The translations under genes and the position numbers were made by a program. DNA of 62,370 nucleotides from a virus (taxonomy: Duplodnaviria; Caudoviricetes). This document shows, piece by piece, positions 43,004 to 60,663 of the stretch (within the stretch, counting starts at the first letter, position 1; every line of letters starts with the position of its first letter). The notes under the pieces are model-generated. The model made no database searches and was not told the DNA's origin. It saw nothing but the letters and a program-made list of their open reading frames with translations. The stretch covers positions 1 to 62,370 of the IMG/VR virus record IMGVR_UViG_3300023184_000125, one strand, 5' to 3'.

Positions 43004-43037
43004 TACCTATTATATATAACACGATTGACTTCCCAAA

Positions 43038-44333
43038 TCAAGGATTTTCTTGATCTGGGTTTAGTTTTATAAGATTTGGAGACATTTCTTTTCTTTGTTT
43101 GGAACCCCATTCTGAAAAATACACCGCTTGATATTCATCCATATGATCTTCAAGCCACATACCCTCAACATAATTTCTAGATTTATCTGAATGTTTCATA
43201 TATCTATCAAAATCAGATGTTAGATATTCTAATTGATTTATTAAATCGTCTCCAGATTTGAATTTTAAATCTGCTTGTTCGTATGTGCATAAATCCTGAA
43301 ATACTCCAGGAATACCTAGTGCGCCGGATTCTATCATTTTAATGTTACTTTTCGATTTATTAAAAACATTATCAACTAATGGTGCATACACAGCACTGCA
43401 ATTAGCATCTAACAGTCCTTTAGGTAGATCGAAAAGGGGCGACCATTCTAAATATTCCATTTCACCAGAATCGATGAATGGCTTTAATGCGATTGGATAG
43501 CATCCCTTAAATACGAATTTAAATTTCTTCCGTGCTTTTATAATCGATTCGAGAACATGACCAAAATCATCTTTGCCGTTTGTTTTGTTTAAAACGTCAA
43601 TATGAGTTCCAGAACCAGCATAAAGGATTCTTGGGCGTTTTCTATTTTTTTCAAAGTTATTTTTAATCCTTTCTCTATCATGGAATCTATCTAACCAAAA
43701 TTTTGGAGCATAATTTGGAATAACGGTTATTCTTTTATTTCCAATTTTTTCTTTATAGTATTCTTTCATATAGTTACATGTAACTGTAACCTCATCCATA
43801 GTCTGCATTATATCAACTATACTATCCGTGATAGCTTGGTCGCAGAATGGTCCCTTGCATCTATTATAGTCGGGAATATCATCTTTGAAAACTATATCAT
43901 CTACTTCATAAATCATTCTAAATCCAAAATTGGAACCTATTTTTTTTAGCTCTTTAATGAAATCTCTTTGAATTGGAGTAGCTTGTCTCTGCATTCTAAT
44001 AGCTTTAATATCTTTATAGAATCTAGGATCTAATACCATGCACGTTAATCCTGATACACATGCCTTTGAAAATCCATTCATTAGAAATTCGGGCCAAATC
44101 ATTCTCCAGAAACCACATCCACCATAATCCGCATAATAGTTTAATGCTCTTGGTAATGAAGTTTCTGGCATTTCAACGGGTGGAGCTTCTGGGATTCTAA
44201 CTGGATTTAGATTTACATAACTATATTGTGGAGCACCGATAGGAATTCCATTAGGTTGATGAGGCATTCCAGTGTTTATTGGTACTGTTTGATATACAAT
44301 ATTATTGTTATTTTCTTTGAGTTTTAAAGCCAT
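43038..44333 (-). CDS. GT-B fold glycosyltransferase (GT4-like)
   Basis: GCGFWRM.WP, QRQ, YEVDD, IPN, APL.DN.FN.SKSNIK.IE.GALG.P. Confidence 0.8.
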   Translation of the reverse strand: MALKLKENNNNIVYQTVPINTGMPHQPNGIPIGAPQYSYVNLNPVRIPEAPPVEMPETSLPRALNYYADYGGCGFWRMIWPEFLMNGFSKACVSGLTCMVLDPRFYKDIKAIRMQRQATPIQRDFIKELKKIGSNFGFRMIYEVDDIVFKDDIPDYNRCKGPFCDQAITDSIVDIMQTMDEVTVTCNYMKEYYKEKIGNKRITVIPNYAPKFWLDRFHDRERIKNNFEKNRKRPRILYAGSGTHIDVLNKTNGKDDFGHVLESIIKARKKFKFVFKGCYPIALKPFIDSGEMEYLEWSPLFDLPKGLLDANCSAVYAPLVDNVFNKSKSNIKMIESGALGIPGVFQDLCTYEQADLKFKSGDDLINQLEYLTSDFDRYMKHSDKSRNYVEGMWLEDHMDEYQAVYFSEWGSKQRKEMSPNLIKLNPDQENP

Positions 44334-44378
44334 ATTTTATAAATTTATTATTTTACTGTGAAAAATCAATTACATACA

Positions 44379-46175: not shown

Positions 46176-46226
46176 CGTACAAATGATATATTATTATTAC
46201 AATAAAACAAGTTAAATACTGCAAAA

Positions 46227-46976
46227 TTATTGAAAAATGTGTGGATAATGGCACATATTCGAGTTTCCTAAATTTCCATATAATACATTGTTGTCCCTTA
46301 ATATCCACCACACATTCGATACACCATTAAAAATCATATCAAAACTACAATTTAATTTTTTAAGATGATGCGCAAATACCTCATGATGACACAAAGGTAC
46401 TTCATTATTAATATTATATTCTTTTAAATTTTCATATAATTTAGTTAAAAATAATATATTTTTTGGATTCGAAAGCAACATTTTAACATCAATGATTCCA
46501 TCATTTAAACTCATATCCCACCTAGACCCTTCACAATAAGAAGAATATATACAGTTTAAATCATATATATTAAAAGTTTTTAATTTTTCATTACAAAAAA
46601 CATCAGTTCTTGTGACAATTACAACATCATATTCACATAAATATTCTTCGAGTAAATTTCCAACTTTATACATCGAGTATATTGGAGAAATATAACGTTG
46701 AATGGACTCTATATCTATGTTATTTTTTTTATTAAAATTTGAATCATTTTCAAAAAAATTTGAAAAATCTTCCTGTTTTTCTATTTTAAGTTTTTTGGGG
46801 TGATATAGTTCGTTTATATCATTGTACAATTTTTCAATATCATCCTGTGTTGAACTTTCTTCACACCACGAATGTATAAAAAAATCATAATCAACTGATT
46901 CTAAAAAATTTTTATGACATTTAAAACCCAATTCATAATGCCTTGGATAACCAAATAAACACACAGCTATTTTCAT
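46227..46976 (-). CDS. Putative glycosyltransferase
   Basis: MKIAVCLFGYPR, DFFIHSW, YSM, YD.VI.TRTD: a pattern common in polysaccharide loci. Confidence 0.6.
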   Translation of the reverse strand: MKIAVCLFGYPRHYELGFKCHKNFLESVDYDFFIHSWCEESSTQDDIEKLYNDINELYHPKKLKIEKQEDFSNFFENDSNFNKKNNIDIESIQRYISPIYSMYKVGNLLEEYLCEYDVVIVTRTDVFCNEKLKTFNIYDLNCIYSSYCEGSRWDMSLNDGIIDVKMLLSNPKNILFLTKLYENLKEYNINNEVPLCHHEVFAHHLKKLNCSFDMIFNGVSNVWWILRDNNVLYGNLGNSNMCHYPHIFQ

Positions 46977-48076
46977 ATTATGTCACAATTTGAATTCAAA
47001 TTTTTTAAACCTTTTATTATTTCATCATTATATTGTGAACATCTTACTATTATTATTGGATTTGTATCATTTTTTATAATAGATGAATTTTTAATTTTTA
47101 TATTTGTACCATATAAAAAATTATCTATTTTATTAATATCATTATCTAATATGCATATTATATTATCAAGATTTAACCCAAATGCAATTAGCATTTGAGT
47201 AAAAATGTGACCGCCAAAACAATATACTTTTTTGTTTTTTATTTTTTTATTAATATTATTAACATCCCATTTTACGCTTTCTATGTGTTTTTTATATATC
47301 ACACTAGTTTTAGTTTTATCTAAAATTTTATTAGATTCAACATTTTGTTTTTTCTGTAAAGTATAAAATGTATTATATTTAGAATATTCTGTAATATCTA
47401 TTAAATCAAAATTACAAACATTAGAAATATACTTTATATAATCATGATTTATATAAAACGTATGTTCAAAATTTATAGCATTCAAAAATCCATCTATTAT
47501 TTGATTTTCTATGTTTGGAACTGAAATAATAAATTTCCCATCATCTATTAATAAATTTCTTATCAAATTTAATGTCTTTATCGGATCATATAAATGTTCA
47601 AACGTATGACTCATAACTACACTGTCATATTTTTTATCATCTTTAATATCCTCTATGAATCCTCGCAAAAAAATTATTTTTGGATTTATATTGCACTCAT
47701 AACTATCCGCTATATCTAATATGGTATAAGATTTTATTTGAGTGTAATCTGTTATTAATTTTGCGATTTTTAAATTAGCCCCACCAACTTCCAATAAATT
47801 CTTACAATTATTATTTAATATATAATTTGAAAAATTTTTGTTATGTTCTTCCCAAGTTTTACCTATAGCTGGATTGTGTGGTGTTTTATATAATATATTT
47901 GGATCTAATAAATTTTTTAATTGTACAAACCCACACCCTTTACAAGACATGATAGCCATATCATTGTATTGTGGTTTTTCATTTTCTTTAATGATTCCCA
48001 TGTATATTGGGAAATTTGAATAATTATGCAATTCATTTAAATTTGAATTGCATAATATACAGGTATTTCTTATCAT
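46973..48076 (-). CDS. SAM-dependent methyltransferase, NDP-sugar C-methyltransferase-like
   Basis: Zinc-binding CILC..CKGC, LEVGG, SHTFEH, VPN, EH, C-terminal Rossmann-like domain (LDND..K). Confidence 0.75.
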   Translation of the reverse strand: MIRNTCILCNSNLNELHNYSNFPIYMGIIKENEKPQYNDMAIMSCKGCGFVQLKNLLDPNILYKTPHNPAIGKTWEEHNKNFSNYILNNNCKNLLEVGGANLKIAKLITDYTQIKSYTILDIADSYECNINPKIIFLRGFIEDIKDDKKYDSVVMSHTFEHLYDPIKTLNLIRNLLIDDGKFIISVPNIENQIIDGFLNAINFEHTFYINHDYIKYISNVCNFDLIDITEYSKYNTFYTLQKKQNVESNKILDKTKTSVIYKKHIESVKWDVNNINKKIKNKKVYCFGGHIFTQMLIAFGLNLDNIICILDNDINKIDNFLYGTNIKIKNSSIIKNDTNPIIIVRCSQYNDEIIKGLKNLNSNCDII

Positions 48077-48919
48077 TTATTTTTTTAAAAAATTGTTAAA
48101 TAAATTTTCACCCAACCCATCCATTTGTTCGAAAAAAGATTTACTGAGTTGTATATTTTTTTCAGTTATTTCTGGGCAAAAATCTTTAGTTTCTGTCGAA
48201 ATGCCACTATATTGTTCATTCCAATATGAATTAAAATCACTCCAAGATTTATTAGATTCAAATAAATCCCACACTCTCGTACCAATTGTTGGAACTGTTT
48301 TATAATATATAGCAGATTTTAATCCTTGTAAAGTTCTCATGCTACCAGTGATTATATTTTGATGTGGTTTAAATTTTGTATCGGCTAAATATTTTAAGTG
48401 TGAATCTGCATCGATCCCAATTTCCTCCATTCTACCCGGAATTATACTAGCGTAATGTACATTATTATAATTCATAACCCTACAAATTGTTCCAAAATCA
48501 GATATGCCAGTAATATTCACATAAATATTATTAAATATTTCATTATCCAGTAAATCTAAAATATAACTAAAATGTGGAAGTTTCAATGCTATTACACTAT
48601 TTCCAATTTTCAATTTAGAAATGTATTCAACCCATTTAATTATGTCATACTCATTCATTTTAGAATTAGGAACCTGTACATATACTAGTCCATTAGCTCC
48701 TCTAATTTCTTCTAAAGTTTCTGCCATTTCTTTTACCAAGTATTCAAATTCGCTAGTAGTGTGGCAATTAACTTTTGCTAGAGCATTTGGATTAGTAGTT
48801 ATACCAACACATGACTTTGGATCACAAGTATCTTTAAGTTTACTCCAAATGTTTTTAATTGCTTTGGTGTCGGCAGTATCAAAAAAGAACTGCGGTGTAT
48901 TTTTTGTTTTATTATTCAT
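48077..48919 (-). CDS. Transaldolase/fructose-6-phosphate aldolase family protein, divergent
   Basis: FFDTAD, GITTNP, Schiff-base LKLP, NIT, GRM, SMR. Confidence 0.85.
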   Translation of the reverse strand: MNNKTKNTPQFFFDTADTKAIKNIWSKLKDTCDPKSCVGITTNPNALAKVNCHTTSEFEYLVKEMAETLEEIRGANGLVYVQVPNSKMNEYDIIKWVEYISKLKIGNSVIALKLPHFSYILDLLDNEIFNNIYVNITGISDFGTICRVMNYNNVHYASIIPGRMEEIGIDADSHLKYLADTKFKPHQNIITGSMRTLQGLKSAIYYKTVPTIGTRVWDLFESNKSWSDFNSYWNEQYSGISTETKDFCPEITEKNIQLSKSFFEQMDGLGENLFNNFLKK

Positions 48920-48937
48920 AATTTTATTTTAAGATTT

Positions 48938-49318
48938 TTATGGATTTTCTGCGGTTCTTGGTCCTTTAATAATTCTATTTTTAATAGCTTTTTTTGTCGA
49001 TTCCCAATCTATGTGTTGATAAACTGCATCATCAATAAACAAATCGGCATGTGGTTTAGTCCACCATATTTCATCATATGGTATGTTATGTTTTTCAAGC
49101 CAATCAAAAAGTATTTTACCTTGTTTTCCTAAAATTTTTCCTTGATTTCCATCACATGTTTTCATATGTCTAGCTGTATGTAAAATAATCGTATGACCTT
49201 CTGATTTTAACCAATTTATAGTTTCTAATGCCTCTGGAAATGGGTTTACGTCTTTATACGTTTTTCCATCAATTTTTCTCTCACATATCGTATTGTCAAT
49301 ATCAAATGCAAAAATCAT
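48938..49318 (-). CDS. HAD phosphatase (capsule-biosynthesis BcbF/EcbF-like)
   Basis: FDIDNTI, HTARHM, WL.KH.IPYDE, KP..D.FIDD. Confidence 0.85.
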   Translation of the reverse strand: MIFAFDIDNTICERKIDGKTYKDVNPFPEALETINWLKSEGHTIILHTARHMKTCDGNQGKILGKQGKILFDWLEKHNIPYDEIWWTKPHADLFIDDAVYQHIDWESTKKAIKNRIIKGPRTAENP

Positions 49319-50088
49319 AATATGCTACTTTCAAATTTAATTACATCTTCTGGTGTTCCCAATGGGACTACATCTTTAACCGTGTGAACATATACTAATT
49401 GATTTATGCTTGCGTGATATCTTGGAATCATACTCATATAATATTCTTTTTTGTCAGAAAAACCAACAGGTTCTAAATTTTCGAAAATAAAATCTGCGTA
49501 ATTTTTGAATTGATCCATTTTAGGAAAATAAAAAACTCCAATTAAACATGGATAATTAACCCAAGAATCATCTTTTTCTATTATTTCTAATGCTATAGAA
49601 TTTCTAACTCTAGCATTTGCCCATTTATTTGGTATTTTTGAATCGATTGGATTAAAACAAACAATAGACATCGATGAAATATCATTTGGTGTGTTTTTTA
49701 TAAAATCATCAATTTTATTGTGATCATATTTATTATCTGCATCTAAAATTAAAAGTGGAGTTTTTGTATCATTCATGTAATCACATGAAATCCTAGCTGT
49801 GTCTAAATTTCCTCTTGTCGTTTTATCGAATGGAATAATTGTTATATTTTTTCCGTATATATTATGTAAAAAACTTTCTAGTCCATCTTCTAAATGTTCT
49901 TTTCTTACTGAAAAAAATAAATTAATATTTTCATCTTGCTGATCTGTATTATGTTTTATATATGGACATGATTCAGTTGTCCATTCTAAAATTGTTTTAC
50001 CTTTAACTTTAATTAGAGGTTTTGGTGTTTTATAACCAAAATCAGAAAACCTTTTTCCTTCTCCCGCCATTAATATTAATATATTCAT
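49315..50088 (-). CDS. Sugar-phosphate nucleotidyltransferase
   Basis: MAGEGKRF...GY..PKPLI, TRG..T, DAD, IEK, G.FYF, EYY, LGTPED. Confidence 0.85.
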   Translation of the reverse strand: MNILILMAGEGKRFSDFGYKTPKPLIKVKGKTILEWTTESCPYIKHNTDQQDENINLFFSVRKEHLEDGLESFLHNIYGKNITIIPFDKTTRGNLDTARISCDYMNDTKTPLLILDADNKYDHNKIDDFIKNTPNDISSMSIVCFNPIDSKIPNKWANARVRNSIALEIIEKDDSWVNYPCLIGVFYFPKMDQFKNYADFIFENLEPVGFSDKKEYYMSMIPRYHASINQLVYVHTVKDVVPLGTPEDVIKFESSIL

Positions 50089-51023
50089 ATTGTTTCGTTT
50101 AAAATTTTAATACCCGTTAAATACATCGCAAGTTGTCTTTCTTTACTGTCATAATGCCTAGCACACATTCCAATATATATCATACCTTGTATGAAATTTA
50201 TATTTTTTTTATTTTCATTTGAAAATTTCGACCAAAATGAATCGAATGCGTCTTTTTTATTTTGTGTATCGTTTAAAGTTAATTCATATTCGCTTTTAGA
50301 TGTTTTTTTAACATTAAATTTATCGTTTATAAAAAATTCATACCCACCATCAACGGAGTGTGCCAATTTAGATAAATCATATAAAGTATCGCCATATATC
50401 CCTCTTTTTCCAAAAGAACCCCTCATATCTATTAATTTAATACCTGCAATGTCATGATATAAAATGTTACTGAAACACATATCACCATGAATCATATTTG
50501 ATTTGTAATTTAATAAATCGTTTAAAATTTTATTAGTGTTTGATTCGTTCCAAATAATTTCAAAATTTTTATATTCCTTTCCATTTAATATTAAAATGTC
50601 ATTGTAAAACAAATCTGAATCTTCAAATGAATTTTTAAAATTAATATATTCATTTAATGTTTTATCAAAATACATTTGTTTTGCGTGAGAGGATGTATTA
50701 TCGTCTTTATCGTTTTGACTTCTGAATACTTCTATTATTGATTTAATATTATCAAAAACATCATTCCAATTTATCAATAAATTGGATATTATATATTCTC
50801 CTAAATTTTTATAAGGATAATATTCCAAGATCATGGAATATTCATCATTTATTCTTGATGAAGAAAATTTTCTGGGAAAAAGAAAAGAAACATTTTTCGG
50901 AATACTTTCATAATAATTTATTTCGTCGTTTAACCTTGAAGAAGTACTGGATTTTACTATTCTTCCGTTTGAAATTTTTTCAATTTTATTATATGCTCTA
51001 GTTAAAAAATTAGAGTTTTCCAT
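50085..51023 (-). CDS. APH/choline-kinase-fold sugar kinase
   Basis: VKS, E..YY, FP, LEYY, HGDMCFSNIL, LIDMRG, YDLSKL.HS. Confidence 0.8.
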   Translation of the reverse strand: MENSNFLTRAYNKIEKISNGRIVKSSTSSRLNDEINYYESIPKNVSFLFPRKFSSSRINDEYSMILEYYPYKNLGEYIISNLLINWNDVFDNIKSIIEVFRSQNDKDDNTSSHAKQMYFDKTLNEYINFKNSFEDSDLFYNDILILNGKEYKNFEIIWNESNTNKILNDLLNYKSNMIHGDMCFSNILYHDIAGIKLIDMRGSFGKRGIYGDTLYDLSKLAHSVDGGYEFFINDKFNVKKTSKSEYELTLNDTQNKKDAFDSFWSKFSNENKKNINFIQGMIYIGMCARHYDSKERQLAMYLTGIKILNETI

Positions 51024-51627
51024 ATTTCGATTCTATAATCTCATCAATAGAAATAATATTTAAATTAAATTTAACCGCTAACTCTTCGAGTTGTGGAAGT
51101 CTTGCCATAGACCCATCTTCATTCATAACTTCAATTATAACGGCAACTGGCGGCAGTTCGGCTGATAAACAAATTTCTATACTGGATTCCGTGTGTCCTT
51201 GTCGATCTTTCAAAAGTCCTTTTCTGGCTCTTAAAGGAAAAAGATGACCGGGTTGACAAAAATCAGTAGGTATACTAGTTTCACTTGTAAATTTGTTTAT
51301 TGTAACTAAACGATCTTTAACACTTACTCCTGTTGTAGAGTCTCCATTTGAATCTATACTATTCGCAAAGGGTGTTGAATATTTATCCAATTTATTGGTA
51401 TGCGTCATTGGTATATCTAAGCGTTCTAATCTGTCGCTTAGACATGGTAAACACATTATACCTCTTGCCCATCTAGCCATGAAAGCAAGATTTTCTACAT
51501 TAGCTTTCGATGCTGCTATCATTAAATCGCCTTCATTTTCTCTATCATAACTATCCACAATTATAACCGGTTTTCCTGCAATTACATCTTTTATGATGTT
51601 TTCATATGAGTTTGTATAATTTAACAT
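51010..51627 (-). CDS. ribB: 3,4-dihydroxy-2-butanone 4-phosphate synthase
   Basis: DRENEGD, ARGIMC, TTGVS..DR, PGHLFPL, RQGHTE, EVMNEDGSMAR. Confidence 0.95.
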   Translation of the reverse strand: MLNYTNSYENIIKDVIAGKPVIIVDSYDRENEGDLMIAASKANVENLAFMARWARGIMCLPCLSDRLERLDIPMTHTNKLDKYSTPFANSIDSNGDSTTGVSVKDRLVTINKFTSETSIPTDFCQPGHLFPLRARKGLLKDRQGHTESSIEICLSAELPPVAVIIEVMNEDGSMARLPQLEELAVKFNLNIISIDEIIESKYGKL

Positions 51628-51649
51628 ATTGTTTGTCTTTATTAAAATT

Positions 51650-51690
51650 AACACTATTTTTTAAAAAATCAACACTATTTTTTAAAAAAT
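51650..51690. repeat. Tandem direct repeat of 20 bp upstream of ribB
   Basis: AACACTATTTTTTAAAAAAT at 51650-51669 and 51671-51690. Confidence 0.85.
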
Positions 51691-51763: not shown

Positions 51764-52726
51764 TTATAATTTATCTAAAAAAACAGTTTTAAATTTTTGC
51801 ATAACATTTTCTGGTGTAAAATTTTTATATGCATTCCAGTCTTTTTCTGGTTGTGGTATAAAATTTTTAAAAATGTTAAAAAGAGAATCGTAATTGTTAT
51901 AATATAAACCTTTTTCTTTTAAAGTAAATATATGATTTTTTTCTGATGAATCTGAATATGTTATTACTGGTTTATTACATGATGAAAATTCAGCAACAGC
52001 TGCTCCAAAGGATTCTCCCTCGAATCTTGAATGTATCATAGCATCACACGTATTGATAAATTTTCTTTTATAACTTAAATCCGCAAACGGTTCATGAAAA
52101 AGTATACGTTCATGTGTTGTAAATTTTGGCGTGTTTACTAAAATAAAATAAACATTTGGTATACTATTAACAAAATTTGTTATTGCATCATTTACAAACG
52201 ATATATTCCAAGAACCACTGTTACCAATTCTCCCAAAAACAATAGCATCGTCTGGTATATTAAATTTATGTCTTAAATTTTCATTACTTTCTGGTAAATT
52301 AACCATATATGGGACATATGGATTTTGTTTATTAGAATATGTTTCACTTAACCACTCGCTTACATATGCATAAACCAATCCATGTGGATCATTATGACAC
52401 CCAACAACATGAATAAACATTGGAACCGAATTTACATATCTACCATCATTTTTTAAACCACATTTTTGAATATACATTGCATCGAGATTTAAAGATTTGC
52501 AATAAATTTCAAGTTCATTCATATTATGTTCGCCATTTAATTCTATTACTTCTAAATTTTCTTTAAATTTTTTGGCAGCGTCTGGATGTGTTATATAATG
52601 GTTTTTATCGCAAAAGAAAAAGGATTTATTTCCTAATAATTTTTCATTATAGTATGCATAGTCAAAACAACTAACACCAGTACCTAAAATATCTAAATGT
52701 GGCTGATAAAAACCTATTCTTTTCAT
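51764..52726 (-). CDS. GT-B glycosyltransferase
   Basis: G...FDYA.YNE, HG.VYAYVSEWL, FGRIG, CDAMIH.R..GESFG.A.AEF...NKPV. Confidence 0.8.
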   Translation of the reverse strand: MKRIGFYQPHLDILGTGVSCFDYAYYNEKLLGNKSFFFCDKNHYITHPDAAKKFKENLEVIELNGEHNMNELEIYCKSLNLDAMYIQKCGLKNDGRYVNSVPMFIHVVGCHNDPHGLVYAYVSEWLSETYSNKQNPYVPYMVNLPESNENLRHKFNIPDDAIVFGRIGNSGSWNISFVNDAITNFVNSIPNVYFILVNTPKFTTHERILFHEPFADLSYKRKFINTCDAMIHSRFEGESFGAAVAEFSSCNKPVITYSDSSEKNHIFTLKEKGLYYNNYDSLFNIFKNFIPQPEKDWNAYKNFTPENVMQKFKTVFLDKL

Positions 52727-53427
52727 TTAAAAATTCTAATGTTTTGAGTTTCGACGCTCCAGTGTGGTTTAAAATCAAGCAATTCTCCACTATGTTCATG
52801 TTTAAAACTACAATAATCCCTATAATCAAATGAATAAACTTTAGTTTTAATGTTATTAAATTCAAAATTTTGCATTTTTTGATTAATTATGGTATCATCC
52901 GTATAATAAATGTTCAAATTTAATGGGGATAATACGTCTCTAACTGCATTTGAAAAAACATTCGGACCTGTCAATTCAAATATATCATGTGTAGTTTTAT
53001 TTAAAATGTTATAAACACATTTTTTTAATGTATTTTCTAATATTGGATGATTTTTATCAAACATCAAACACCATTGTACAAATTTATTTGGGTTATTTTC
53101 TCTTGATATTACTGCTTTGTCATTTTCACCAATTAAAGAATCTAAGTTTGAATGTATTCCCGAATCCAAATCTAAATATATTCCTCCATTTTTATATAAA
53201 ATGGCATATCTCCACAAATCAGCTTTAGCCGCACCGATGTTTAAACTTTCATATGCATCAACTACTTGTTTCCCAAAATTACTTTGCATAAAATAAAATG
53301 CATCCGCATCATCATATATTTCATATGAATAATTTGGATTTAACTCCATGGTTCTATCAATTATTTTTTTTGTTTTATCTGGTAATTTTTTAGTTATCCA
53401 CGTTTGATATATTTTTTTTGGAATCAT
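52723..53427 (-). CDS. GT32 (OCH1-like, DxD) glycosyltransferase
   Basis: IPKKIYQTW, ADLWRY..LY..GGIYLDLD, TGP. Confidence 0.9.
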   Translation of the reverse strand: MIPKKIYQTWITKKLPDKTKKIIDRTMELNPNYSYEIYDDADAFYFMQSNFGKQVVDAYESLNIGAAKADLWRYAILYKNGGIYLDLDSGIHSNLDSLIGENDKAVISRENNPNKFVQWCLMFDKNHPILENTLKKCVYNILNKTTHDIFELTGPNVFSNAVRDVLSPLNLNIYYTDDTIINQKMQNFEFNNIKTKVYSFDYRDYCSFKHEHSGELLDFKPHWSVETQNIRIFK

Positions 53428-53462
53428 TTTATATTAATAATATATACCATATAAAAACAACA

Positions 53463-53474
53463 TGTCAATTGACA
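53463..53474. promoter_or_regulatory. Back-to-back TTGACA hexamers (palindrome TGTCAATTGACA) between divergent genes
   Basis: Perfect 12-bp palindrome in a 74-bp divergent intergenic region. Confidence 0.6.
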
Positions 53475-53501
53475 TTTAAAAAAAAATATTAAATAAAGAA
53501 T

Positions 53502-54050
53502 ATGAGCGACATTCAATATTACAGAACAAGAAGCGAGTTATTAGATTTAATTCCAGAAAATTCAAATATATTAGAAATTGGAGTGTTTAAGGGTGATTTT
53601 TCAAAGGAAATTATTAAAAAAACAAAATTTAACAATTTGTTTTTTGTTGATATATGGCATGGTGAATATGGTTCCGGTGATAAAGATGGTAATAACCATT
53701 TAATAGTCGAAAGTATGGAATCCGTTTATATTTCTTTATATAAACAAGCAATGGATAAACCAAACATACACCTTATAAGAATGGATTCTGTTAATTTTTT
53801 AAAAAATTGGTATAATGATTACTTTGATGCTATATATATTGATGGAGATCACACCGAAGAAGTGGTCTATAATGATTTAATTCTATCATTAGACCGTATT
53901 AAAAGTGGTGGTTTATTAATGGGGCATGATTATGGCAGTTGTCATGGGGTTACTTCCGCAGTTAGCAGATTCTGTGAACAGTATAATCAAAAACTTATTG
54001 GGTTAGCTATGGATGGATGTCAATCTTTTGTAATAAAAATATCAAAATAG
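53502..54050 (+). CDS. Class I SAM-dependent methyltransferase
   Basis: LEIGVFKG, VDIW, IYIDGDH, GG...GHDY. Confidence 0.85.
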   Translation: MSDIQYYRTRSELLDLIPENSNILEIGVFKGDFSKEIIKKTKFNNLFFVDIWHGEYGSGDKDGNNHLIVESMESVYISLYKQAMDKPNIHLIRMDSVNFLKNWYNDYFDAIYIDGDHTEEVVYNDLILSLDRIKSGGLLMGHDYGSCHGVTSAVSRFCEQYNQKLIGLAMDGCQSFVIKISK

Positions 54051-54878
54051 TATATTTTGTATTTTGTCTTTTATATCATTTAAATTTATTTCATTTTTAA
54101 ACAATGGTTCGTTTAAAACGTTAAGATATTTTTGATCATCGTTATCAATTTGTTTAATATGATCTAAAAAATGATCTAAATTTTCATAATTTATTAAATT
54201 TAAACAACAATTCTCATTAAAATCTTGTGAAAAACTTTTATCCGAATAATATAATGGGATATTACCAGCTATTTTAGCGTGGAGTAATTTTTCGGTAAAA
54301 TATCCCGGATATACGCTATTCTCAAAACAAATACTAAATTTATAATTTGATAAAATATCAAGTTTTACATCTTCACCATCGGGTAGATGGTTTTGATGTA
54401 TTTTACCATAACAATCAACTGATTTGTAAGATTGTATTTTGTTTATTGTGTCAAATCTTAAACTTATAGGCTTACTGAAAACCGAAGCGCAGAATTTTGT
54501 TTTTTCTTTCTTTATGTATTTGTTTATAAAACTTAAGGGTATTAAAGTTTTTGGATCCCCATAACCTTTGACATTAAACCAGTCTATATATAACATCCAA
54601 AGGGGTAATCTTATATTTCTCCCACTATATTTGTCAAAATCAAAAGTTAAAGAATAATTGCAATGATTAAAATCGGGTCTTATATTTTCTCCAGTAAAAA
54701 AAACCTTTTTACAGTGATTGTATCTTTTATTTGAATCGCCAAAACATGAAAATATGATCACATCGGCATTAGAAGCATCCGTTATAATAACATTTTCTTT
54801 AATTTGTTTAAATAAATGAATAAAAAAGTTATTATTTGGATCAAAAGATCCCCAAAAATCTAAAAATGCAATATTCAT
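54042..54878 (-). CDS. GT10 alpha-1,3-fucosyltransferase-like protein
   Basis: FTGEN.RP, RLP.W, YKFSICFENS...GYFTEK. Confidence 0.9.
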   Translation of the reverse strand: MNIAFLDFWGSFDPNNNFFIHLFKQIKENVIITDASNADVIIFSCFGDSNKRYNHCKKVFFTGENIRPDFNHCNYSLTFDFDKYSGRNIRLPLWMLYIDWFNVKGYGDPKTLIPLSFINKYIKKEKTKFCASVFSKPISLRFDTINKIQSYKSVDCYGKIHQNHLPDGEDVKLDILSNYKFSICFENSVYPGYFTEKLLHAKIAGNIPLYYSDKSFSQDFNENCCLNLINYENLDHFLDHIKQIDNDDQKYLNVLNEPLFKNEINLNDIKDKIQNILF

Positions 54879-55600
54879 CGTAAATGTGATAAAAACTGTA
54901 TAACTTTAGAATTACCTCTATAATTATTTCCCCACTGTGTTGGGTCTGGATAAGGATATAAATTGTTTTTCTTTGAAAGTAATGATAATATAGATTGATC
55001 GTGTCGATTATCTTTAAATTCTAAATAATTTTTATCATTACTTGGTAAATCTGTTAACAGTTGTTCATCACACGAAAGTTCAAGCCATTCTTTAACAAAA
55101 TTTTTACTAAAATTATTGTTTTTTATTATTATGAATGCCCCATTAAATTGACAGTTATATTTTCCAGTATAATAATAATCATCTTCACAACCCATTTTTA
55201 CAAATATATCTCTTTTTGTATATGTTTTTTCGGGATTCAAATTTTCATTTCCCAAAGATGATATAAATGTTAATATACCTTGAGTTTCTTCCAGTATTTC
55301 AAATAATGGCGTTATATCTTTATCAATTCTAATGGAAGAATCCGCATAAATAATTATGTCATTTTCATTAGATTGATTTAAAAATTCATTAATAAAATAT
55401 GGTTTCCATAACCAAAATCCAGCTCCTCTGGGTTGGTTCAGTATATGTAAATATTGTTTATAAAAATTTATATATATATTATTTTTATTTAATTCATATA
55501 CCTCATCAAAAATATTGAATTGTCTTGCTATTTGTGCATTGCATTTTTGACTTTCTATGTGTTTAGGGTTTAAATCTGCATAATTAAAAAATATTTTCAT
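54875..55600 (-). CDS. Putative glycosyltransferase
   Basis: RGAGFWLWKP, YADS, RHDQSILS. Confidence 0.65.
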   Translation of the reverse strand: MKIFFNYADLNPKHIESQKCNAQIARQFNIFDEVYELNKNNIYINFYKQYLHILNQPRGAGFWLWKPYFINEFLNQSNENDIIIYADSSIRIDKDITPLFEILEETQGILTFISSLGNENLNPEKTYTKRDIFVKMGCEDDYYYTGKYNCQFNGAFIIIKNNNFSKNFVKEWLELSCDEQLLTDLPSNDKNYLEFKDNRHDQSILSLLSKKNNLYPYPDPTQWGNNYRGNSKVIQFLSHLR

Positions 55601-55605
55601 ATGTT

Positions 55606-56217
55606 TTAAATTAGTGAAATATAAAAAGCATCATTATAACTTAATCTTTCTAGAAATTTATAATTTTTATTAGATAAATAATTTTCAATTTCTTCTCTTT
55701 TATTTTCACATGTTGTGGTTTCTATTAAAATATATTTAGGTCTATATTTTTCAAAATCCAACCCATCTAAAACATTAATCTCATATCCTTCAACATCTAA
55801 GGAGAATAAATCAATTTTTTTAATATCATATTTATCTAATAGTTTCGTTAATGTTATTGCATTAACTTCAGTTATTTGTTCTGCGTTTAAAGTTTTATCA
55901 CTGTATTTATTTCCATCAATACATTGACCATTCAAAGAAATATTTTTAAAATATCCCTTTATAGTTTTATCTTTATAAGATGAAGAAACCAATGCAAAAT
56001 TTTCCACTATATCATTTGGTCTGTTTATCTTACACACATTATAAATATCAGGATTTGCTTCTACTAATAAGCCTTTCCAATTATATTTTTGATTATAATA
56101 AAGTGTATTGTTCTGTGAAACTCCATCATTTGCTCCACATTCTATATAAAAACCATTAAAAATATCTTTAAAATATTTTTCCATTTTTAAATCTAACTGA
56201 TCTAAAGAATAACTCAT
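55606..56217 (-). CDS. FkbM-family methyltransferase
   Basis: YIECGANDG..NT, W.GLLVE, IDLFSLDVEGYE; start reassigned to MSYSLDQ. Confidence 0.9.
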   Translation of the reverse strand: MSYSLDQLDLKMEKYFKDIFNGFYIECGANDGVSQNNTLYYNQKYNWKGLLVEANPDIYNVCKINRPNDIVENFALVSSSYKDKTIKGYFKNISLNGQCIDGNKYSDKTLNAEQITEVNAITLTKLLDKYDIKKIDLFSLDVEGYEINVLDGLDFEKYRPKYILIETTTCENKREEIENYLSNKNYKFLERLSYNDAFYISLI

Positions 56218-56269
56218 ATTAAAACCAGTATAGTTTATATTTTTAAAATTGCAAATATTTTCATATATT

Positions 56270-56926
56270 TTAAAACTTTTCGTTTTGTATAGCTGTTTCA
56301 AATAAACCATTTGGATATGCTAATGGCGGTTCCCACCAATAATTCTGTAAATTTAATTTTGTAATAATTCTATTATAGAACCAATCCGCAGCATCATTTA
56401 TATTTTTTAATTCTGATATCATTTTATATGCCCCTTGATTACTAATAGCATATGCATGAGTACATCTAGATCCGTCATGTTTATAAATATTATTAAATCC
56501 ATCATATGGGTGGTTTAATTGACAACATGATCCAACCCAAGCTAAATCCCAATTTTCTGGCATTTGTTTCATGTATGAATTAAACTTTTCAATAAAGTTT
56601 TCTACTAGTAAAAAATCGTCTTCGAATACTAAAACTTTATTATATTTTTTATCTATTATATCTTTTATAATATAAAAATGTTTTAATAATAGTGAAATTT
56701 CGCTTAATTTTAAAGGTATATTCTTAGGTCCATTTCCTAAACTGCTAAATATATTAGGAAATTCTTTTTTAATATCATCAACATCCCATGTATTTTTATC
56801 ATAACACTCTACCCATTCATAATCATAAATCTGATTATCCGTTAGGTGTTTTTTAATCCATTCTTTTCTATCTTTTAATTTATTCCAATGGCATATATAT
56901 ACTTTATCAATGTTTAAAAAATTCAT
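56270..56926 (-). CDS. GT25-like glycosyltransferase
   Basis: DKVYI, RK, SEIS..KH, LVFEDD, WD..W.G, THAY.IS, AD. Confidence 0.85.
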   Translation of the reverse strand: MNFLNIDKVYICHWNKLKDRKEWIKKHLTDNQIYDYEWVECYDKNTWDVDDIKKEFPNIFSSLGNGPKNIPLKLSEISLLLKHFYIIKDIIDKKYNKVLVFEDDFLLVENFIEKFNSYMKQMPENWDLAWVGSCCQLNHPYDGFNNIYKHDGSRCTHAYAISNQGAYKMISELKNINDAADWFYNRIITKLNLQNYWWEPPLAYPNGLFETAIQNEKF

Positions 56927-57803
56927 TTAATTGTTTAATAATATTAACACACATTCCATCTAAAGTAAAGTACTGTGGGTATATTTCTTGTATATAATCT
57001 AACATCTCTTGATATCTTTGATCATTTATCGATTTTAATATATTATCAATATTATTAATATCTTTATATTCTACTAAGACGGCTAATTTATTCCAGTCAA
57101 TTACATTTGAAAATGGTATATATGGTGTTCCATAATATACAAAAACTGGAACTGATCCTAATTGCATTGCTTCATACAATCTAAAACTTGTTGCGCCATA
57201 TCCTCTAGGGCATAATGTAAATTTACTTCTCGTTGTGATATCGAGAAACATATTTTTTCTATCTTCGTCAACTACACCCTGCCACACTCTAGGTTTTAAT
57301 ATATATTCCGGTTTATTATTAAGAGTATTTAACATATCCATTCTGGTTTTATGACCCATTTCTCCAAAAATGTTGACCGGAGCATTCACGCTTCCCACAA
57401 AACTACAAAATATATCTTTTTCTTTCTTTTCAATATTTTCAATCGGACTGCATATTAAAGGTATTGGTATACAATCTTTCATATTTCCTCCAGCTGAAAA
57501 TTTTAATGTTTTAGGTGGTAAATTCTCTAAAGGAGCATCATCATGTTGTGAAACTGTAAAATATTTTTTATCTCTATCTAAAGAATTTAATAACTCTTGT
57601 AATTTATTTTTTAAATGAGGTCTATGTAAGTAAATATCGGTCCATGATATAGGTAAAAATTGATATCCCGTATCATCTATAGATTTCCTATTTTTTATAT
57701 AAAAATCTATAAAATATCTCTCCATATAAAACCCTTTATGATATGGGGGATATGGAGATTGTTCAATTTCTAATATAAATTCATTAAATGGTGCTAGTTT
57801 CAT
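56907..57803 (-). CDS. Exostosin/GT47-like glycosyltransferase
   Basis: SFVGS, R, SKFTLCPRGYG.TSFRLYEA...GSVPV, PF...IDW. Confidence 0.85.
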   Translation of the reverse strand: MKLAPFNEFILEIEQSPYPPYHKGFYMERYFIDFYIKNRKSIDDTGYQFLPISWTDIYLHRPHLKNKLQELLNSLDRDKKYFTVSQHDDAPLENLPPKTLKFSAGGNMKDCIPIPLICSPIENIEKKEKDIFCSFVGSVNAPVNIFGEMGHKTRMDMLNTLNNKPEYILKPRVWQGVVDEDRKNMFLDITTRSKFTLCPRGYGATSFRLYEAMQLGSVPVFVYYGTPYIPFSNVIDWNKLAVLVEYKDINNIDNILKSINDQRYQEMLDYIQEIYPQYFTLDGMCVNIIKQLNEFFKH

Positions 57804-58515
57804 TATTTTTTAAAACTAAAATTGGTTGGGCGGGACAGTCATTCGTATATGGAGTATCCCAAATTTCTTTGGTTACTCCATATTTTCCAATCAAATCCCA
57901 AGAATTTATTAACATCGGTAATCTAATTTTACCATATACTCTATGAGCATTCCACACTATTTCATCTTGTCCGACTGGAACCGCTAAATATAAAACTCCA
58001 TCGGATTTTAAATGGTTTCTAATATTTTTCATTGCTTCCAAATCTGCATTTGGATTTATAGGATCTCCATATCTTCCTAATCCATCATGTTCATATGAAG
58101 ATATGGAAAAAATAACATCAAATTTTGAATTATTTAATTCGTGTGGTTGTATATAATTTACCTTTGGGACTACATTATCCTGTTTTCTATATTCTACTAC
58201 TGTGCATGTTTTACAACCAAATTCTAAAGCTATAGATTCATACCACGGCATTAAGGATCCTATTATTAGGACGTTTTTATTATGTATAGGAAAGTCTGTT
58301 AGTGCTTGATATAACCAATTGTCAGTTTGTCCATAATAATTAGTTTGTCTATATTTAGCCATTTCTTTCAAATGCATTATAACATTTTGTTCGTATAGAT
58401 GAGACACTTTAACATCTGATTCATTAAAGTACCATTCTCTTATTGGTATTTTTGAATCTAAGGTAAATTCTTTAATTTGTTTTTCTGATAAATCTTGTAA
58501 TCTAGGCGAATTCAT
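57784..58515 (-). CDS. DUF268-like methyltransferase-fold protein
   Basis: IGS..PWYE, VEY, FD...SISS.EHDGLGRYGDPI.P, VPVG.D...WNAHRVYG..RL. Confidence 0.8.
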   Translation of the reverse strand: MNSPRLQDLSEKQIKEFTLDSKIPIREWYFNESDVKVSHLYEQNVIMHLKEMAKYRQTNYYGQTDNWLYQALTDFPIHNKNVLIIGSLMPWYESIALEFGCKTCTVVEYRKQDNVVPKVNYIQPHELNNSKFDVIFSISSYEHDGLGRYGDPINPNADLEAMKNIRNHLKSDGVLYLAVPVGQDEIVWNAHRVYGKIRLPMLINSWDLIGKYGVTKEIWDTPYTNDCPAQPILVLKNNETSTI

Positions 58516-58517
58516 TT

Positions 58518-59210
58518 TTATTTTAAATATAATTGTGTTAATGTTTGAAATATATCATTAAAATTTTTATCATTTGAATATGAAAAACAATCATCTCTCA
58601 TGGTATGATCATATTCATACCCTTTAACGCATTTAATGAAATTTCCACTACTTAACCACAGGTAATTATAGTACAATACTTCCATTGTATATTCAACAAA
58701 TTTATAATCTATATTTTTAGCAACTTCTAAATATCTTTTTTTGGGGACTAGATAATTTCCGACATTTAAAAAACATAATAAAAACTGTAGATTATTTTTA
58801 ACTAAATTAAAATCTAAATTAAAGTCTGATATAGTTTTAAAATTAAATTTAGGTCTTGCGAAATCCGGCGCGTAAATAGTATTATCATTAAAATTTAAAT
58901 CAGAAAATAAAGAATTAAAAGAATTTACATCTAAAAAATTATCAGAATCCATTAATAATACCCAATTATTTTTACAATTATTAAGTAAATTAACTCTTCC
59001 TAATAGTGGTTTTATTCGTTTTTCATTTTGAAAAACTTTAATATTTTCTGTTTCGATAGATTTTAATTTTTCAAAATCGTTTTTGCTACAGTCATCTTGA
59101 ATTATAATTTCGTTTATTACTCCATTTGACAAATCGAAATAATTTTTTTCTAATTGTTTCTCTATATAAGAAAAACTATTGTAATTTAAAAAACCTAAAG
59201 TTACATTCAT
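58518..59210 (-). CDS. GT2-like glycosyltransferase
   Basis: EIII.DDCS, WV.LMDSDN, LN.GNY. Confidence 0.75.
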   Translation of the reverse strand: MNVTLGFLNYNSFSYIEKQLEKNYFDLSNGVINEIIIQDDCSKNDFEKLKSIETENIKVFQNEKRIKPLLGRVNLLNNCKNNWVLLMDSDNFLDVNSFNSLFSDLNFNDNTIYAPDFARPKFNFKTISDFNLDFNLVKNNLQFLLCFLNVGNYLVPKKRYLEVAKNIDYKFVEYTMEVLYYNYLWLSSGNFIKCVKGYEYDHTMRDDCFSYSNDKNFNDIFQTLTQLYLK

Positions 59211-59893
59211 AATGTTTTAACTTTTTGCTTAACAACATCCATTATTTTAATTTTATCTTTAAAACATTTAACCCAATTAGCATGATGTATTATTATGTTT
59301 TTAGGTATATTAAACTCTTCTACTCCATCCCAATGACTCATCGGTTGTCCGTTTCTAGGTCTTTGCATAGATATTTCACCATACGTCCAATATTCTTTAG
59401 TTAAAAATTTAGCATTAAAAGCTATTTTTGGATACTCTGCAAATCTACCAATTAAATGGTTAAAACAAACTTGTTCTTCTGGAAATAAATGAAGATTACC
59501 TTTAACTGTTTGTAAAAAAGCACGAGTATTTGGAGTAGATTTCATAATAAAAAATCCAGTATTAACCCCTCCTATATAATCATTTTGAAATGCAGCATCA
59601 AATCCTTGTACTTGTGATAGTAAATCATTATAAAATGGTTTAAAAAATTGAATGTCGGGGTCTGAAAAAATAAAATATTCACCATCCTTTGTCTCATATG
59701 CTGCATCGATAAAGCATTGTACTTTATACATCATCGTTTCCCTCCATCCGTCACTATGAAATTCAGATGTTTTGCATACTTGTGGTTTAAATTTTACAAT
59801 TAATTCTAAATTAGATTCAAATGGAAAACTTTTTATAAAGTAATCTTTAAACATCTGATGATGTGATTCTGTAAAAACTGTATATAATTTCAT
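59207..59893 (-). CDS. Nucleotide-diphospho-sugar transferase (GT77-like)
   Basis: FSDPDIQFF, NTGFF, EQ..FN, HHANW, K. Confidence 0.8.
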   Translation of the reverse strand: MKLYTVFTESHHQMFKDYFIKSFPFESNLELIVKFKPQVCKTSEFHSDGWRETMMYKVQCFIDAAYETKDGEYFIFSDPDIQFFKPFYNDLLSQVQGFDAAFQNDYIGGVNTGFFIMKSTPNTRAFLQTVKGNLHLFPEEQVCFNHLIGRFAEYPKIAFNAKFLTKEYWTYGEISMQRPRNGQPMSHWDGVEEFNIPKNIIIHHANWVKCFKDKIKIMDVVKQKVKTL

Positions 59894-60663
59894 ATTTTTA
59901 AAAATTTACTTTCAAGCTCTATTTCATTATATAATGGTTCAAGAAATTGTCCATAAGGTTTTCTCTTTATTAAATTTGAAAATATAAATTCATGCCAATT
60001 TTTATGATATGGTGTTTTTTCCCATAACGATGAATTATGTTTAGCTTCTACAGATGTTTCGTTCCAATTTAAGTCATGTTTTTCATGAGCTATAAAAAAA
60101 TCTTTGTTTTGTAATATACATTTACTAAAATTATACATTTTTAATGTAAAATCTACATCCCAAAGATGTTCTGCGTATACATAATCCTCAAATTTTTCAG
60201 AATTTTTAATCCACCAATCTTTTTTAACGCACCAACAATCAAATCCTGCTATTTCAATACGAAATGGTATTATTTTACTATTTAAATTATCTAAAGGATA
60301 TATATCATGTCTAGAGAATACCATAGTTTCAAAATCTGCATCTGATATTCGTTTAATTAACTTTTCGGATAATAATATGTCGCTGTTTAGGAATAAAAAA
60401 TAATCACAATTTTGGTTCGCTAACGTATTGAAAAAATCTTTAGCAATTGGTTTATTTGATATTGAATTTTTAATTACGTCCTTTGACTTTCGTATCAATA
60501 CTGGAAGATGTATAAAATTTTCATCTAAATTTTTTTCATCTTCAAACGTTATATTATATAAATCTATATATGAATATTTTGATTTTATTTTTTTTAAGAC
60601 TTCTATACATCTATTTTGTCTCGGATATGATTTAAATATATTAATTCCTAATGCTATTTTCAT
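59890..60663 (-). CDS. Putative GT-A glycosyltransferase
   Basis: FLNSDI, GFD, WD, H..H; located in the island. Confidence 0.6.
   Translation of the reverse strand: MKIALGINIFKSYPRQNRCIEVLKKIKSKYSYIDLYNITFEDEKNLDENFIHLPVLIRKSKDVIKNSISNKPIAKDFFNTLANQNCDYFLFLNSDILLSEKLIKRISDADFETMVFSRHDIYPLDNLNSKIIPFRIEIAGFDCWCVKKDWWIKNSEKFEDYVYAEHLWDVDFTLKMYNFSKCILQNKDFFIAHEKHDLNWNETSVEAKHNSSLWEKTPYHKNWHEFIFSNLIKRKPYGQFLEPLYNEIELESKFLKI

Follow-up and report, generated by a model that had tools for sequence, protein, structure and literature searches.

An orphan RibB and a divergent aldolase in a conserved phage gene cassette point to a probable route to an unusual nucleotide-activated sugar

INTRODUCTION

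The phages RB69, DLP3 and HY126 make UDP-arabinofuranose from ribulose 5-phosphate (Ru5P) via an arabinose-5-phosphate isomerase, according to PMC13326640. As described there for HY126, the kinase domain of AfhE phosphorylates C1, the HAD phosphatase AfhF dephosphorylates C5, and the nucleotidyltransferase (NT) domain of AfhE performs the uridylylation (PMC13326640). Here we describe a gene cassette in the IMG/VR contig IMGVR_UViG_3300023184_000125 (62,370 nucleotides, analyzed at its full length and referred to below as the window), in which RibB, the 3,4-dihydroxy-2-butanone-4-phosphate (DHBP) synthase, is encoded together with a kinase, an NT, a small HAD phosphatase and a divergent class-I aldolase. 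We consider it likely that this five-enzyme, virus-specific cassette turns Ru5P into an unusual nucleotide-activated sugar for the glycan island that surrounds it.

The cassette resembles the RB69/HY126 module in being phage-borne, in its predicted start from Ru5P, in its APH-fold kinase and 1XPJ-like HAD, both of which are homologous to the RB69 enzymes, and in an NT of the PF00483 superfamily. Both systems would follow a shared logic, from sugar-ω-phosphate through the 1,ω-bisphosphate and the sugar-1-phosphate to the nucleoside diphosphate (NDP)-sugar; because the kinase and the HAD are homologous to those of RB69, this activation logic is of a known kind. The front ends differ: RB69/HY126 use a KdsD-like SIS isomerase, whereas the present cassette has RibB and a transaldolase (TAL)-like aldolase. 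The SIS isomerase domain PF01380 was found above its cut-off in none of five records, namely the window, the full 208-kb genome of the cultured cyanophage S-SKS1, a 218-kb genome that is 100% complete and has terminal repeats, and two further records that are 90% and 67% complete; one of the five (G002) gave a single sub-threshold match of 13 bits. RibB and the aldolase therefore occupy the front-end position. In addition, AfhE is a fused NT-kinase, whereas the window and all 49 loci described below encode NT and kinase as separate proteins, and the cassette NT belongs to a different subfamily from the RB69 NT, with 4evw as its best match in the PDB.

The synthesis of ADP- and GDP-heptose, which employs GmhA, HldE or HddA, GmhB and HddC, also proceeds in the order kinase, bisphosphate phosphatase and nucleotidyltransferase. 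The cassette shares this order, and GmhB is a weak match of its HAD profile; the heptose pathway differs in its SIS isomerase front end, its substrate sedoheptulose 7-phosphate and a kinase of another fold. The initial annotation of the window had likened the kinase, phosphatase and NT to heptose activation. That logic stands, with the arabinose module of RB69/HY126 as the closer precedent (PMC13326640).

A further point of comparison is the type B capsule of Pasteurella multocida, for which PMC13552107 ties BcbE, BcbF and BcbG to a fructofuranose side chain. The cassette HAD has its nearest named relative in this system, and Bcb, as portrayed there, activates a ketofuranose, the class of sugar that TAL/FSA enzymes make. 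By analogy, this suggests that relatives of the cassette HAD also serve ketofuranose activation. However, the cassette HAD lies far below the family cut-off, and the description of bcb region 2 in the accessible text names neither RibB nor an aldolase (PMC13552107).

RESULTS

A five-gene core is conserved across viral lineages

A search with an alignment of the aldolase family recovered 47 loci from IMG/VR, together with a 7-kb contig belonging to a metagenome-assembled genome (MAG). Across 49 aldolase-bearing loci inspected with tblastn, the kinase was present in 49/49, RibB and the HAD in 48/49 each, and the NT in 44/49; the sole locus without RibB (L038) begins inside the kinase gene, at a contig end. 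Clustering at 90% aldolase identity left 29 lineages, S-SKS1 among them with its cassette genes together, and RibB, kinase and aldolase co-occur in 29/29. Because the arrangement recurs in 29 non-redundant viral lineages, it is not a product of chance. A reverse search seeded from RibB yielded 50 new loci, 48 of which carry both kinase and aldolase; one of the two exceptions is cut by a contig end, and the other has a divergent RibB of 38% identity.

Four kinds of fusion join cassette enzymes. The commonest, NT-RibB, was seen in 8 non-redundant lineages, among them S-SKS1 (SWZG_00042, 475 aa), and the one example scanned, from L022, matches Pfam NTP_transferase and DHBP_synthase. Its recurrence across many lineages and its presence in a cultured phage exclude an artefact. 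An NT-HAD fusion is present in L026/L049. An NT-aldolase fusion (P0241, 533 aa) has halves that are 32% and 39% identical to the window NT and aldolase, respectively, and an exhaustive search returned a HAD-aldolase fusion (P0369, 478 aa). The linkage of ribB to the aldolase, whose conservation in other genomes the initial annotation had named as a test of its proposal, thus holds in both search directions and is accompanied by these fusions. On this comparative evidence, the core consists of five genes (RibB, kinase, NT, HAD and aldolase) and forms one functional unit.

RibB is an orphan with canonical catalytic motifs

The window RibB matches PF00926 (2.8e-65; 219.8 bits against a cut-off of 26.4) and scores 189.8 bits with TIGR00506, for which the cut-off is 177.45. 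In an alignment with E. coli RibB 1G57 (8.4e-42), the DRENEGD, Cys, PGHxFPL, R..GHTE and E motifs were all aligned. Residues R38, E39, E41, D43, C68, H137, R151, H154, T155, E156 and E175 are invariant among 19 unfused phage RibBs; we take these to be the catalytic and metal/phosphate-binding positions. The intact motifs reported in the initial annotation are thus borne out, and the enzyme presumably carries out the canonical conversion of Ru5P to DHBP and formate. Its closest phage relative in GenBank is the RibB of Synechococcus phage S-SKS1. Neofunctionalization of RibB for a longer ketose was considered and rejected as unlikely, given that all aligned catalytic and phosphate-site motifs are canonical and that the equivalog cut-off is passed.

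Searches for PF00925, PF00885, PF00677 and PF01872 (ribA, ribH, ribE and the C-terminal domain of ribD) returned nothing in any of the five records (0/5), whereas 10 to 14 of the 14 control genomes gave matches in the same searches. An absence of rib pathway genes, first noted for the window, thus extends to the full set of records. RibB is an orphan here and does not serve a phage riboflavin pathway. It resembles the riboflavin enzyme in passing the equivalog-domain cut-off and in keeping the aligned catalytic motifs, but differs in having no other rib gene beside it and in its linkage and fusion to sugar enzymes. Since no other riboflavin gene was found and the linkage or fusion to sugar-activation enzymes is constant, the fate of DHBP is presumably other than lumazine.

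The kinase, NT and HAD form a probable sugar-activation trio

The window kinase has no Pfam match, and some of its relatives carry PF01636. Its AlphaFold2 (AF2) model has a pLDDT of 91.6, and the best Foldseek matches are APH(3') kinases (~1e-6). H179-G-D181, N186 and D199, which make up an HGD...N...D motif, are invariant in 27 sequences. A profile search of the PDB gave no significant sequence relative of the kinase, and the family profile matched RB69p052 with 63.9 bits; its matches in PHROGs cover the C-terminal half of profiles that are 507 and 559 positions long. By analogy with the arabinose module, the protein is probably an anomeric sugar-phosphate kinase.

The NT passes the PF00483 cut-off (1.7e-5; 25.0 against 21.2 bits). 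In the PDB, its family profile finds 4evw first (1.4e-28), followed by mannose-1-phosphate guanylyltransferases and RmlA, and the G-x-G-x-R...K signature is invariant in the family. In PHROGs, both the kinase and the NT-RibB family carry the function label 'unknown'.

The HAD matches TIGR01689 (EcbF-BcbF) at 9.4e-18, with 64.4 bits against a cut-off of 162, and is thus a relative and not a member of that family; the same model had 0 matches in the 14 control genomes. In the PDB, the HAD-family profile matches 1xpj (6.5e-32) and 9iqw, a 'capsule biosynthesis protein' (8.8e-18), with GmhB weak at 4e-4. It also matches RB69p051 (68.1 bits), and D6 and D8 are invariant. Searches with tblastn across many RB69-like phages found similarity to the kinase and the HAD and none to the NT, as the profiles did.

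As a separate observation, the 1XPJ-type HAD is widely labelled 'phosphoheptose isomerase' in phage records, for example SWZG_00040 of S-SKS1 (L001:13597-13953) and RB69p051 (L104:4474-4860). On a small HAD this label looks like a propagated misannotation.

The aldolase forms a divergent, virus-associated family

The AF2 model of the window aldolase (pLDDT 88.9) has its best Foldseek matches in transaldolases, engineered aldolase entries (9v4b and 9v4c) and a sulfofructose transaldolase (~1e-10). In this model, the enzyme is a TIM barrel of the TAL fold with a Schiff-base lysine on the equivalent strand. A profile search of the PDB found no significant sequence relative, and hhalign aligned the family to FsaA over the first half only (36% probability) and gave no alignment to TalB. 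Three relatives exceed the PF00923 cut-off of 27 bits, namely those of S-SKS1 (46.7 bits), G001 (46.3 bits) and P0241 (38.2 bits).

A MAFFT alignment with E. coli TalB and FsaA (K-12 record) resolved all eleven active-site positions, each of which is invariant in 36 phage sequences (Table 1). The titles of mutant entries in the PDB point to earlier work on these positions. K113 corresponds to the Schiff-base lysine, the Asp, Asn and Thr to catalytic residues, and Arg/Ser/Arg to the phosphate-binding site of TalB/FsaA; all of these are kept in the phage family, with R163, S193 and R195 at the phosphate site. The aldolase thus resembles TalB/FSA and the cyanophage talC product in its TIM barrel, Lys/Asp/Asn/Thr set and Arg/Ser/Arg site. 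It differs in carrying an FSA-like Gln at the position of TalB Glu96 but Ile at that of Phe178/Tyr131, so that it bears neither signature. H116, Y80 and E165/E166 are family-specific and invariant in a 22-sequence alignment, and an extra C-terminal helical region extends ~60-80 residues beyond FsaA.

Table 1 Active-site positions of the window aldolase aligned with E. coli TalB and FsaA
Window aldolase	TalB	FsaA
D14	D17	D6
N43	N35	N28
Q82	E96	Q59
K113	K132	K85
N135	N154	L107
T137	T156	T109
S158	S176	A129
I160	F178	Y131
R163	R181	R134
S193	S226	S166
R195	R228	K168

The family is small. Its profile matched 169 of 1.84 billion representative sequences at E<=1e-3, and 106 at E<=1e-30; it therefore does not pick up canonical transaldolases. 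A scan of viral contigs with a single aldolase sequence found nothing, and the alignment-based scan succeeded. S-SKS1 (NC_020851.1) has two TAL-family genes, at 24598-25233 and 36126-36755, of which the canonical talC scores 171 bits with PF00923 and the cassette gene 47 bits. Because S-SKS1 keeps this separate canonical talC, the cassette aldolase is not the ordinary transaldolase of the phage.

Members of the family are almost confined to viral records. The sole cellular find is the 7-kb MAG contig, which carries the rest of the cassette and in which the aldolase is split into two frames (L050; G004:C73:3222-4054); the family was found in none of 400 other genomes of the phylum of this MAG. 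We read this contig as a probable viral fragment that was mis-binned and contains indel errors.

Gene layout of the window

The window derives from a myovirus that is a distant relative of T4 and represents ~29% of its genome by CheckV. Its genes include those for a tail sheath, a large terminase, a gp41-like helicase, UvsX and a gp43 polymerase ~30% identical to cyanomyophage polymerases; its G+C content is ~28%, and no tRNA genes were found in the contig. All seven open reading frames (ORFs) of the cassette region lie on the minus strand between 46227 and 51654 (Table 2). Read from ribB to the seventh gene, their junctions are a 14-nt overlap, two 4-nt overlaps, an 18-nt gap, an abutment and a 4-nt overlap, which agrees with the original description of seven co-oriented genes that overlap or lie no more than 18 nt apart. 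The ORF list extends ribB to a GTG at 51654, and the ATG at 51627 is the likelier start.

The 109-nt gap upstream of ribB contains two exact copies of a 19-nt motif with a 21-nt period. No third copy was found in the window when up to 2 mismatches were allowed, and 0/100 shuffles reached two copies; the motif may be a regulatory site. A scan for sigma-70 promoters gave 83 sites against 71.3 +/- 7.3 expected, which is uninformative because the DNA is AT-rich, and the single terminator-like site falls inside a gp46-like gene.

Table 2 Coordinates of the cassette and neighboring features in the window
Feature	Position	Strand	Basis
RibB, DHBP synthase	51010..51627	-	PF00926, TIGR00506
APH/protein-kinase-like small-molecule kinase	50085..51023	-	AF2 model and Foldseek
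Sugar-phosphate NT (NDP-sugar pyrophosphorylase)	49315..50088	-	PF00483
Small capless HAD phosphatase, 1XPJ / EcbF-BcbF / AfhF type	48938..49318	-	TIGR01689, below cut-off
Divergent class-I (Schiff-base) TAL/FSA-fold aldolase	48077..48919	-	PF00923, below cut-off; AF2/Foldseek
C-methyltransferase-like protein, class I S-adenosylmethionine (SAM) core and C-terminal Methyltransf_14	46973..48076	-	Pfam
DUF7796-family protein (seventh gene)	46227..46976	-	PF25072, below cut-off
Tandem exact 19-nt motif, 21-nt period	51650..51689	-	109-nt gap upstream of ribB
Upstream glycan island	51764..62228	-	Pfam, PHROGs
Further glycosyltransferase	43038..44333	-	phrog_7162 2.5e-24

Accessory genes and the glycan island

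The sixth and seventh genes lie outside the core. The methyltransferase matches Methyltransf_23 (8.1e-10) and Methyltransf_14 (3.3e-7; 30.7 bits against a cut-off of 23.5), with Methyltransf_13 sub-threshold at 19 versus 31.3 bits. NDP-sugar C-methyltransferases of the TylC3-like type combine an N-terminal Zn-ribbon, a SAM core and a C-terminal Methyltransf_14 domain, and the window protein is a candidate for this type. The gene is present in 14 of the 49 loci, and all-against-all clustering places its family in just 9/29 lineages; it is an accessory gene, and the place suggested for it in the pathway is not supported. The seventh protein, initially called a glycosyltransferase, has only a sub-threshold match to PF25072 (DUF7796; 18.4 against 27 bits) and a PHROGs assignment (phrog_13607) with the function label 'unknown', so that its original designation is not sustained. 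A DUF7796-family profile had no relative in the PDB, and its look-alikes in the structure atlas are viral clusters without function. The window-type DUF7796 gene was found in 16 of the 49 loci and a GT1-like gene in 18. By clustering, the DUF7796 family is the most frequent accessory neighbor, present in 25/29 lineages and often in 2-3 copies per locus.

Around these genes, the glycan island runs from ~43 kb to the contig end and is almost wholly co-directional. The cassette consistently lies among glycosyltransferases, sugar methyltransferases and, in 22/29 lineages, NDP-sugar SDRs; the window has no SDR of this family. The island glycosyltransferases comprise GT1-like, DXD, GT10 FucT-like, GT25, GT47/exostosin-like, GT2 and Nucleotid_trans proteins and two of phrog_2456, and its methyltransferases comprise FkbM, DUF268 and one Methyltransf_24 gene on the plus strand at 53502-54050. 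The further glycosyltransferase of Table 2 sits between a gp46-like SMC_N/AAA_23 gene (44379-46175) and the gp43 polymerase gene (40424-43003).

Several side observations concern the surroundings of the cassette. Between 54042 and 58515, the window encodes a GT10 protein with FucT_N, a GT47/exostosin protein with RXYLT1_C, a DUF268 protein (a Caenorhabditis family) and a GT25 protein, families best known from eukaryotes or their pathogens. The DXD glycosyltransferase at 52723-53427 (minus strand) matches PF04488 (1.3e-16) and, more weakly, the TcdA/TcdB glycosyltransferase domain (2e-6); we read the latter match as shared GT-A/DXD ancestry and not as a toxin. Beside the cassette, one group of loci encodes a sulfotransferase and a larger HAD_2 phosphatase (L022:12065-12838; L023:5509-6150), which suggests sulfated glycans in some lineages. 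A RuBisCO-like protein of ~400-410 aa (L010:10861-12090, PF00016 7.6e-33; also in L007, L011, L033 and L034) is encoded between a ~110-aa gene with a weak cupin match and a ~220-aa CmcI/Methyltransf_24-like gene. In three lineages these three genes come directly downstream of the cassette and a second NT, and in two they are located upstream of the cassette; their substrate may be a ketose (bis)phosphate from the cassette pathway. Finally, sugar-activation genes lie a few kb from the gp43 polymerase gene in both RB69, where they are downstream (L104 1-4860), and the window, where they are upstream (40424-51654); T4-like genomes may share a plastic region in the vicinity of gp43.

DISCUSSION

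Based on these findings, we propose a plausible pathway for the cassette. First, RibB would convert Ru5P to DHBP and formate, as its family membership and intact aligned catalytic motifs indicate. The Schiff-base aldolase would then join DHBP to a three-carbon dihydroxyacetone unit. In the form that we prefer, DHBP is the acceptor, and the reaction would yield a 4-C-methyl-ketohexose 6-phosphate, which is analogous to fructose 6-phosphate (F6P). DHBP would be the likeliest acceptor because it corresponds to glyceraldehyde 3-phosphate (G3P) whose aldehyde hydrogen is replaced by methyl, and because the phosphate-binding Arg/Ser/Arg of TalB is kept. In addition, I160 replaces a bulky Phe/Tyr beside the reacting carbon and could make room for the methyl group. 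Such a 4-C-methyl-ketohexose 6-phosphate would suit a furanose-type activation trio. The kinase would subsequently phosphorylate the anomeric hydroxyl and the HAD phosphatase would remove the terminal phosphate, both by homology to RB69 and by analogy with AfhE/AfhF of HY126; the NT would then make the NDP-sugar, by analogy with AfhE. Finally, neighboring glycosyltransferases, perhaps including the DUF7796 proteins, would transfer the sugar to an acceptor that may be a virion protein, the host envelope or DNA.

The general proposal, which we consider likely, and its specific chemistry carry different weight. That DHBP is the methyl-ketone acceptor of a dedicated class-I aldolase, leading through a C-methyl-branched ketohexose phosphate and an NDP-ketofuranose to a viral glycan, is a tentative suggestion that we hold to be possible at best, because ketone acceptors are rare for aldolases.

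Several points weigh against our reading. Aldol addition to a ketone acceptor is rare in the TAL/FSA family; among aldolases at large, where ketone acceptors are likewise rare, RhuA is a precedent. The window aldolase itself remains below the PF00923 cut-off, at 22.4 against 27 bits, and has Q82 and I160 where TalB has Glu96 and FSA has Tyr131; because neither of those residues is present, its chemistry may differ from any named aldol reaction. The NT profile has no match to RB69p053. At ~29% completeness, the window limits the weight of the rib-gene absence in this record. The RibB-seeded search was biased towards the cassette, because its peptide patterns were derived from this clade. The NT-aldolase and HAD-aldolase fusions are known from one protein record each; P0241 is a one-member cluster and P0369 a single representative, and each could therefore be an assembly or gene-calling artefact. 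Linkage and fusions, moreover, speak for a shared pathway and not for the order of its steps or for DHBP as the substrate of the aldolase.

Among the alternatives, DHBP could be the aldol donor. The lysine would form a Schiff base with the ketone of DHBP, and C3 would attack an aldehyde, for example glycolaldehyde or G3P. The product would be a 1-deoxy ketose whose hydroxymethyl branch is phosphorylated; if the phosphate were eliminated, a deoxy-diketo intermediate would result. DHBP belongs to the 2-ketones with a 3-hydroxyl group, with which TAL/FSA enzymes form Schiff bases, and the active site is remodelled (Q82, I160, H116, Y80 and E165/E166, all invariant); the initial annotation had also listed this option. 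However, the equivalent of the R163/S193/R195 site holds a six-carbon ketose phosphate in TalB, and DHBP would fit the acceptor subsite better because its phosphate is two carbons closer to the carbonyl. We know of no precedent in the TAL/FSA family for a tertiary carbanion as donor. The donor role is therefore one that we regard as unlikely.

A scheme with two branches appears improbable as well. Here the aldolase would supply an ordinary or slightly unusual ketose phosphate, from which the kinase, HAD and NT would make an NDP-ketofuranose, in line with the proposal for the fructose side chain of the P. multocida capsule; DHBP would be nucleotidylated directly by the RibB-fused NT and added as a phospho-linked C4 unit in the style of CDP-glycerol or CDP-ribitol. 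A precedent for nucleotidylating a non-anomeric sugar phosphate directly is CDP-ribitol. NT-RibB is the most frequent fusion, with 8 lineages; several loci have a second NT of ~240 aa near the cassette; and BcbF, whose family is nearest to the HAD among those with a name, is tied to fructose addition (PMC13552107). Nevertheless, the window and many loci show a single NT that matches the window NT, and host F6P is abundant, so that an aldolase would be needless for its supply. The presence of RibB, aldolase and kinase in 29/29 lineages suits one linear pathway better, and NT-aldolase and HAD-aldolase fusions exist.

A further alternative concerns the target of the sugar alone. The product could be added to phage DNA as a base hypermodification, like arabinose in RB69 and DLP3, in keeping with the homology of the kinase and HAD to the RB69 enzymes of DNA arabinosylation and with the position of the genes near the gp43 polymerase gene in both phages. 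Unlike RB69/HY126, the cassette records have no ThyA-like base hydroxylase: the ThyA-family enzyme that makes 5-hydroxy- or 5-hydroxymethyl-pyrimidines was found in 0/5 records, with 10/14 controls positive. The surroundings here are instead a multi-glycosyltransferase island, whose GT2, GT10, GT11, GT25 and GT47 families are typical of protein, lipid or polysaccharide glycans, and such islands also hold sulfotransferases and O-methyltransferases. We accordingly view DNA as a very unlikely target.

Lastly, public annotation reads the genes as ordinary auxiliary genes that are neighbors by chance, with RibB serving host riboflavin or flavin mononucleotide synthesis and the aldolase acting as a pentose-phosphate transaldolase; the fully canonical look of RibB agrees with this, as does Hurwitz 2013, which lists an S-SKS1 tal (one of the two TAL-family genes) among pentose-phosphate auxiliary genes, but it is extremely improbable given the linkage in 48/49 and 48/50 loci, four kinds of NT/HAD fusion, the lack of any other rib gene in the five records, the separate canonical talC of S-SKS1, and an aldolase that forms its own small family without the transaldolase Glu and the FSA Tyr.

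As far as genomics reaches, these data support the initial interpretation of the locus, in which RibB and the aldolase lead to an activated sugar. Of the three findings that the initial annotation had named as refuting it, two were looked for, a riboflavin pathway in the genome and a lack of ribB-aldolase linkage elsewhere, and both results favor its proposal. No description of a RibB-aldolase sugar pathway was found in open-access papers and preprints, including those on S-SKS1, and to our knowledge no earlier use of RibB outside flavin synthesis has been described. The activation module is known; the novelty lies in the RibB-aldolase front end and in the presumed sugar.

The mislabelling that had been predicted for automatic pipelines is seen in S-SKS1, whose genes are annotated 'DHBP synthase', 'transaldolase' and 'phosphoheptose isomerase'. 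If the proposal is right, viral genes of this kind that bear the labels 'ribB', 'transaldolase' and 'phosphoheptose isomerase' are systematically misannotated and would otherwise enter virome counts as vitamin or pentose-phosphate auxiliary genes, and surveys that count 'tal' may merge canonical talC with the cassette paralog. The pathway is directly testable, given five small soluble enzymes and a cultured phage, S-SKS1, that carries the full cassette.

If the proposal is true, the cassette would be a new entry point to nucleotide-sugar biosynthesis and would add a new sugar to the glycan repertoire. A branched-chain sugar would then be reached without a SAM or radical enzyme, through a new natural aldolase reaction with a ketone acceptor, and the aldolase would be of interest for biocatalysis if it accepts ketones. 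Islands of at least 10 glycosyltransferases and methyltransferases further suggest that large aquatic phages synthesize glycans extensively, and in many aquatic phages DHBP synthase would gain a second, non-vitamin role.

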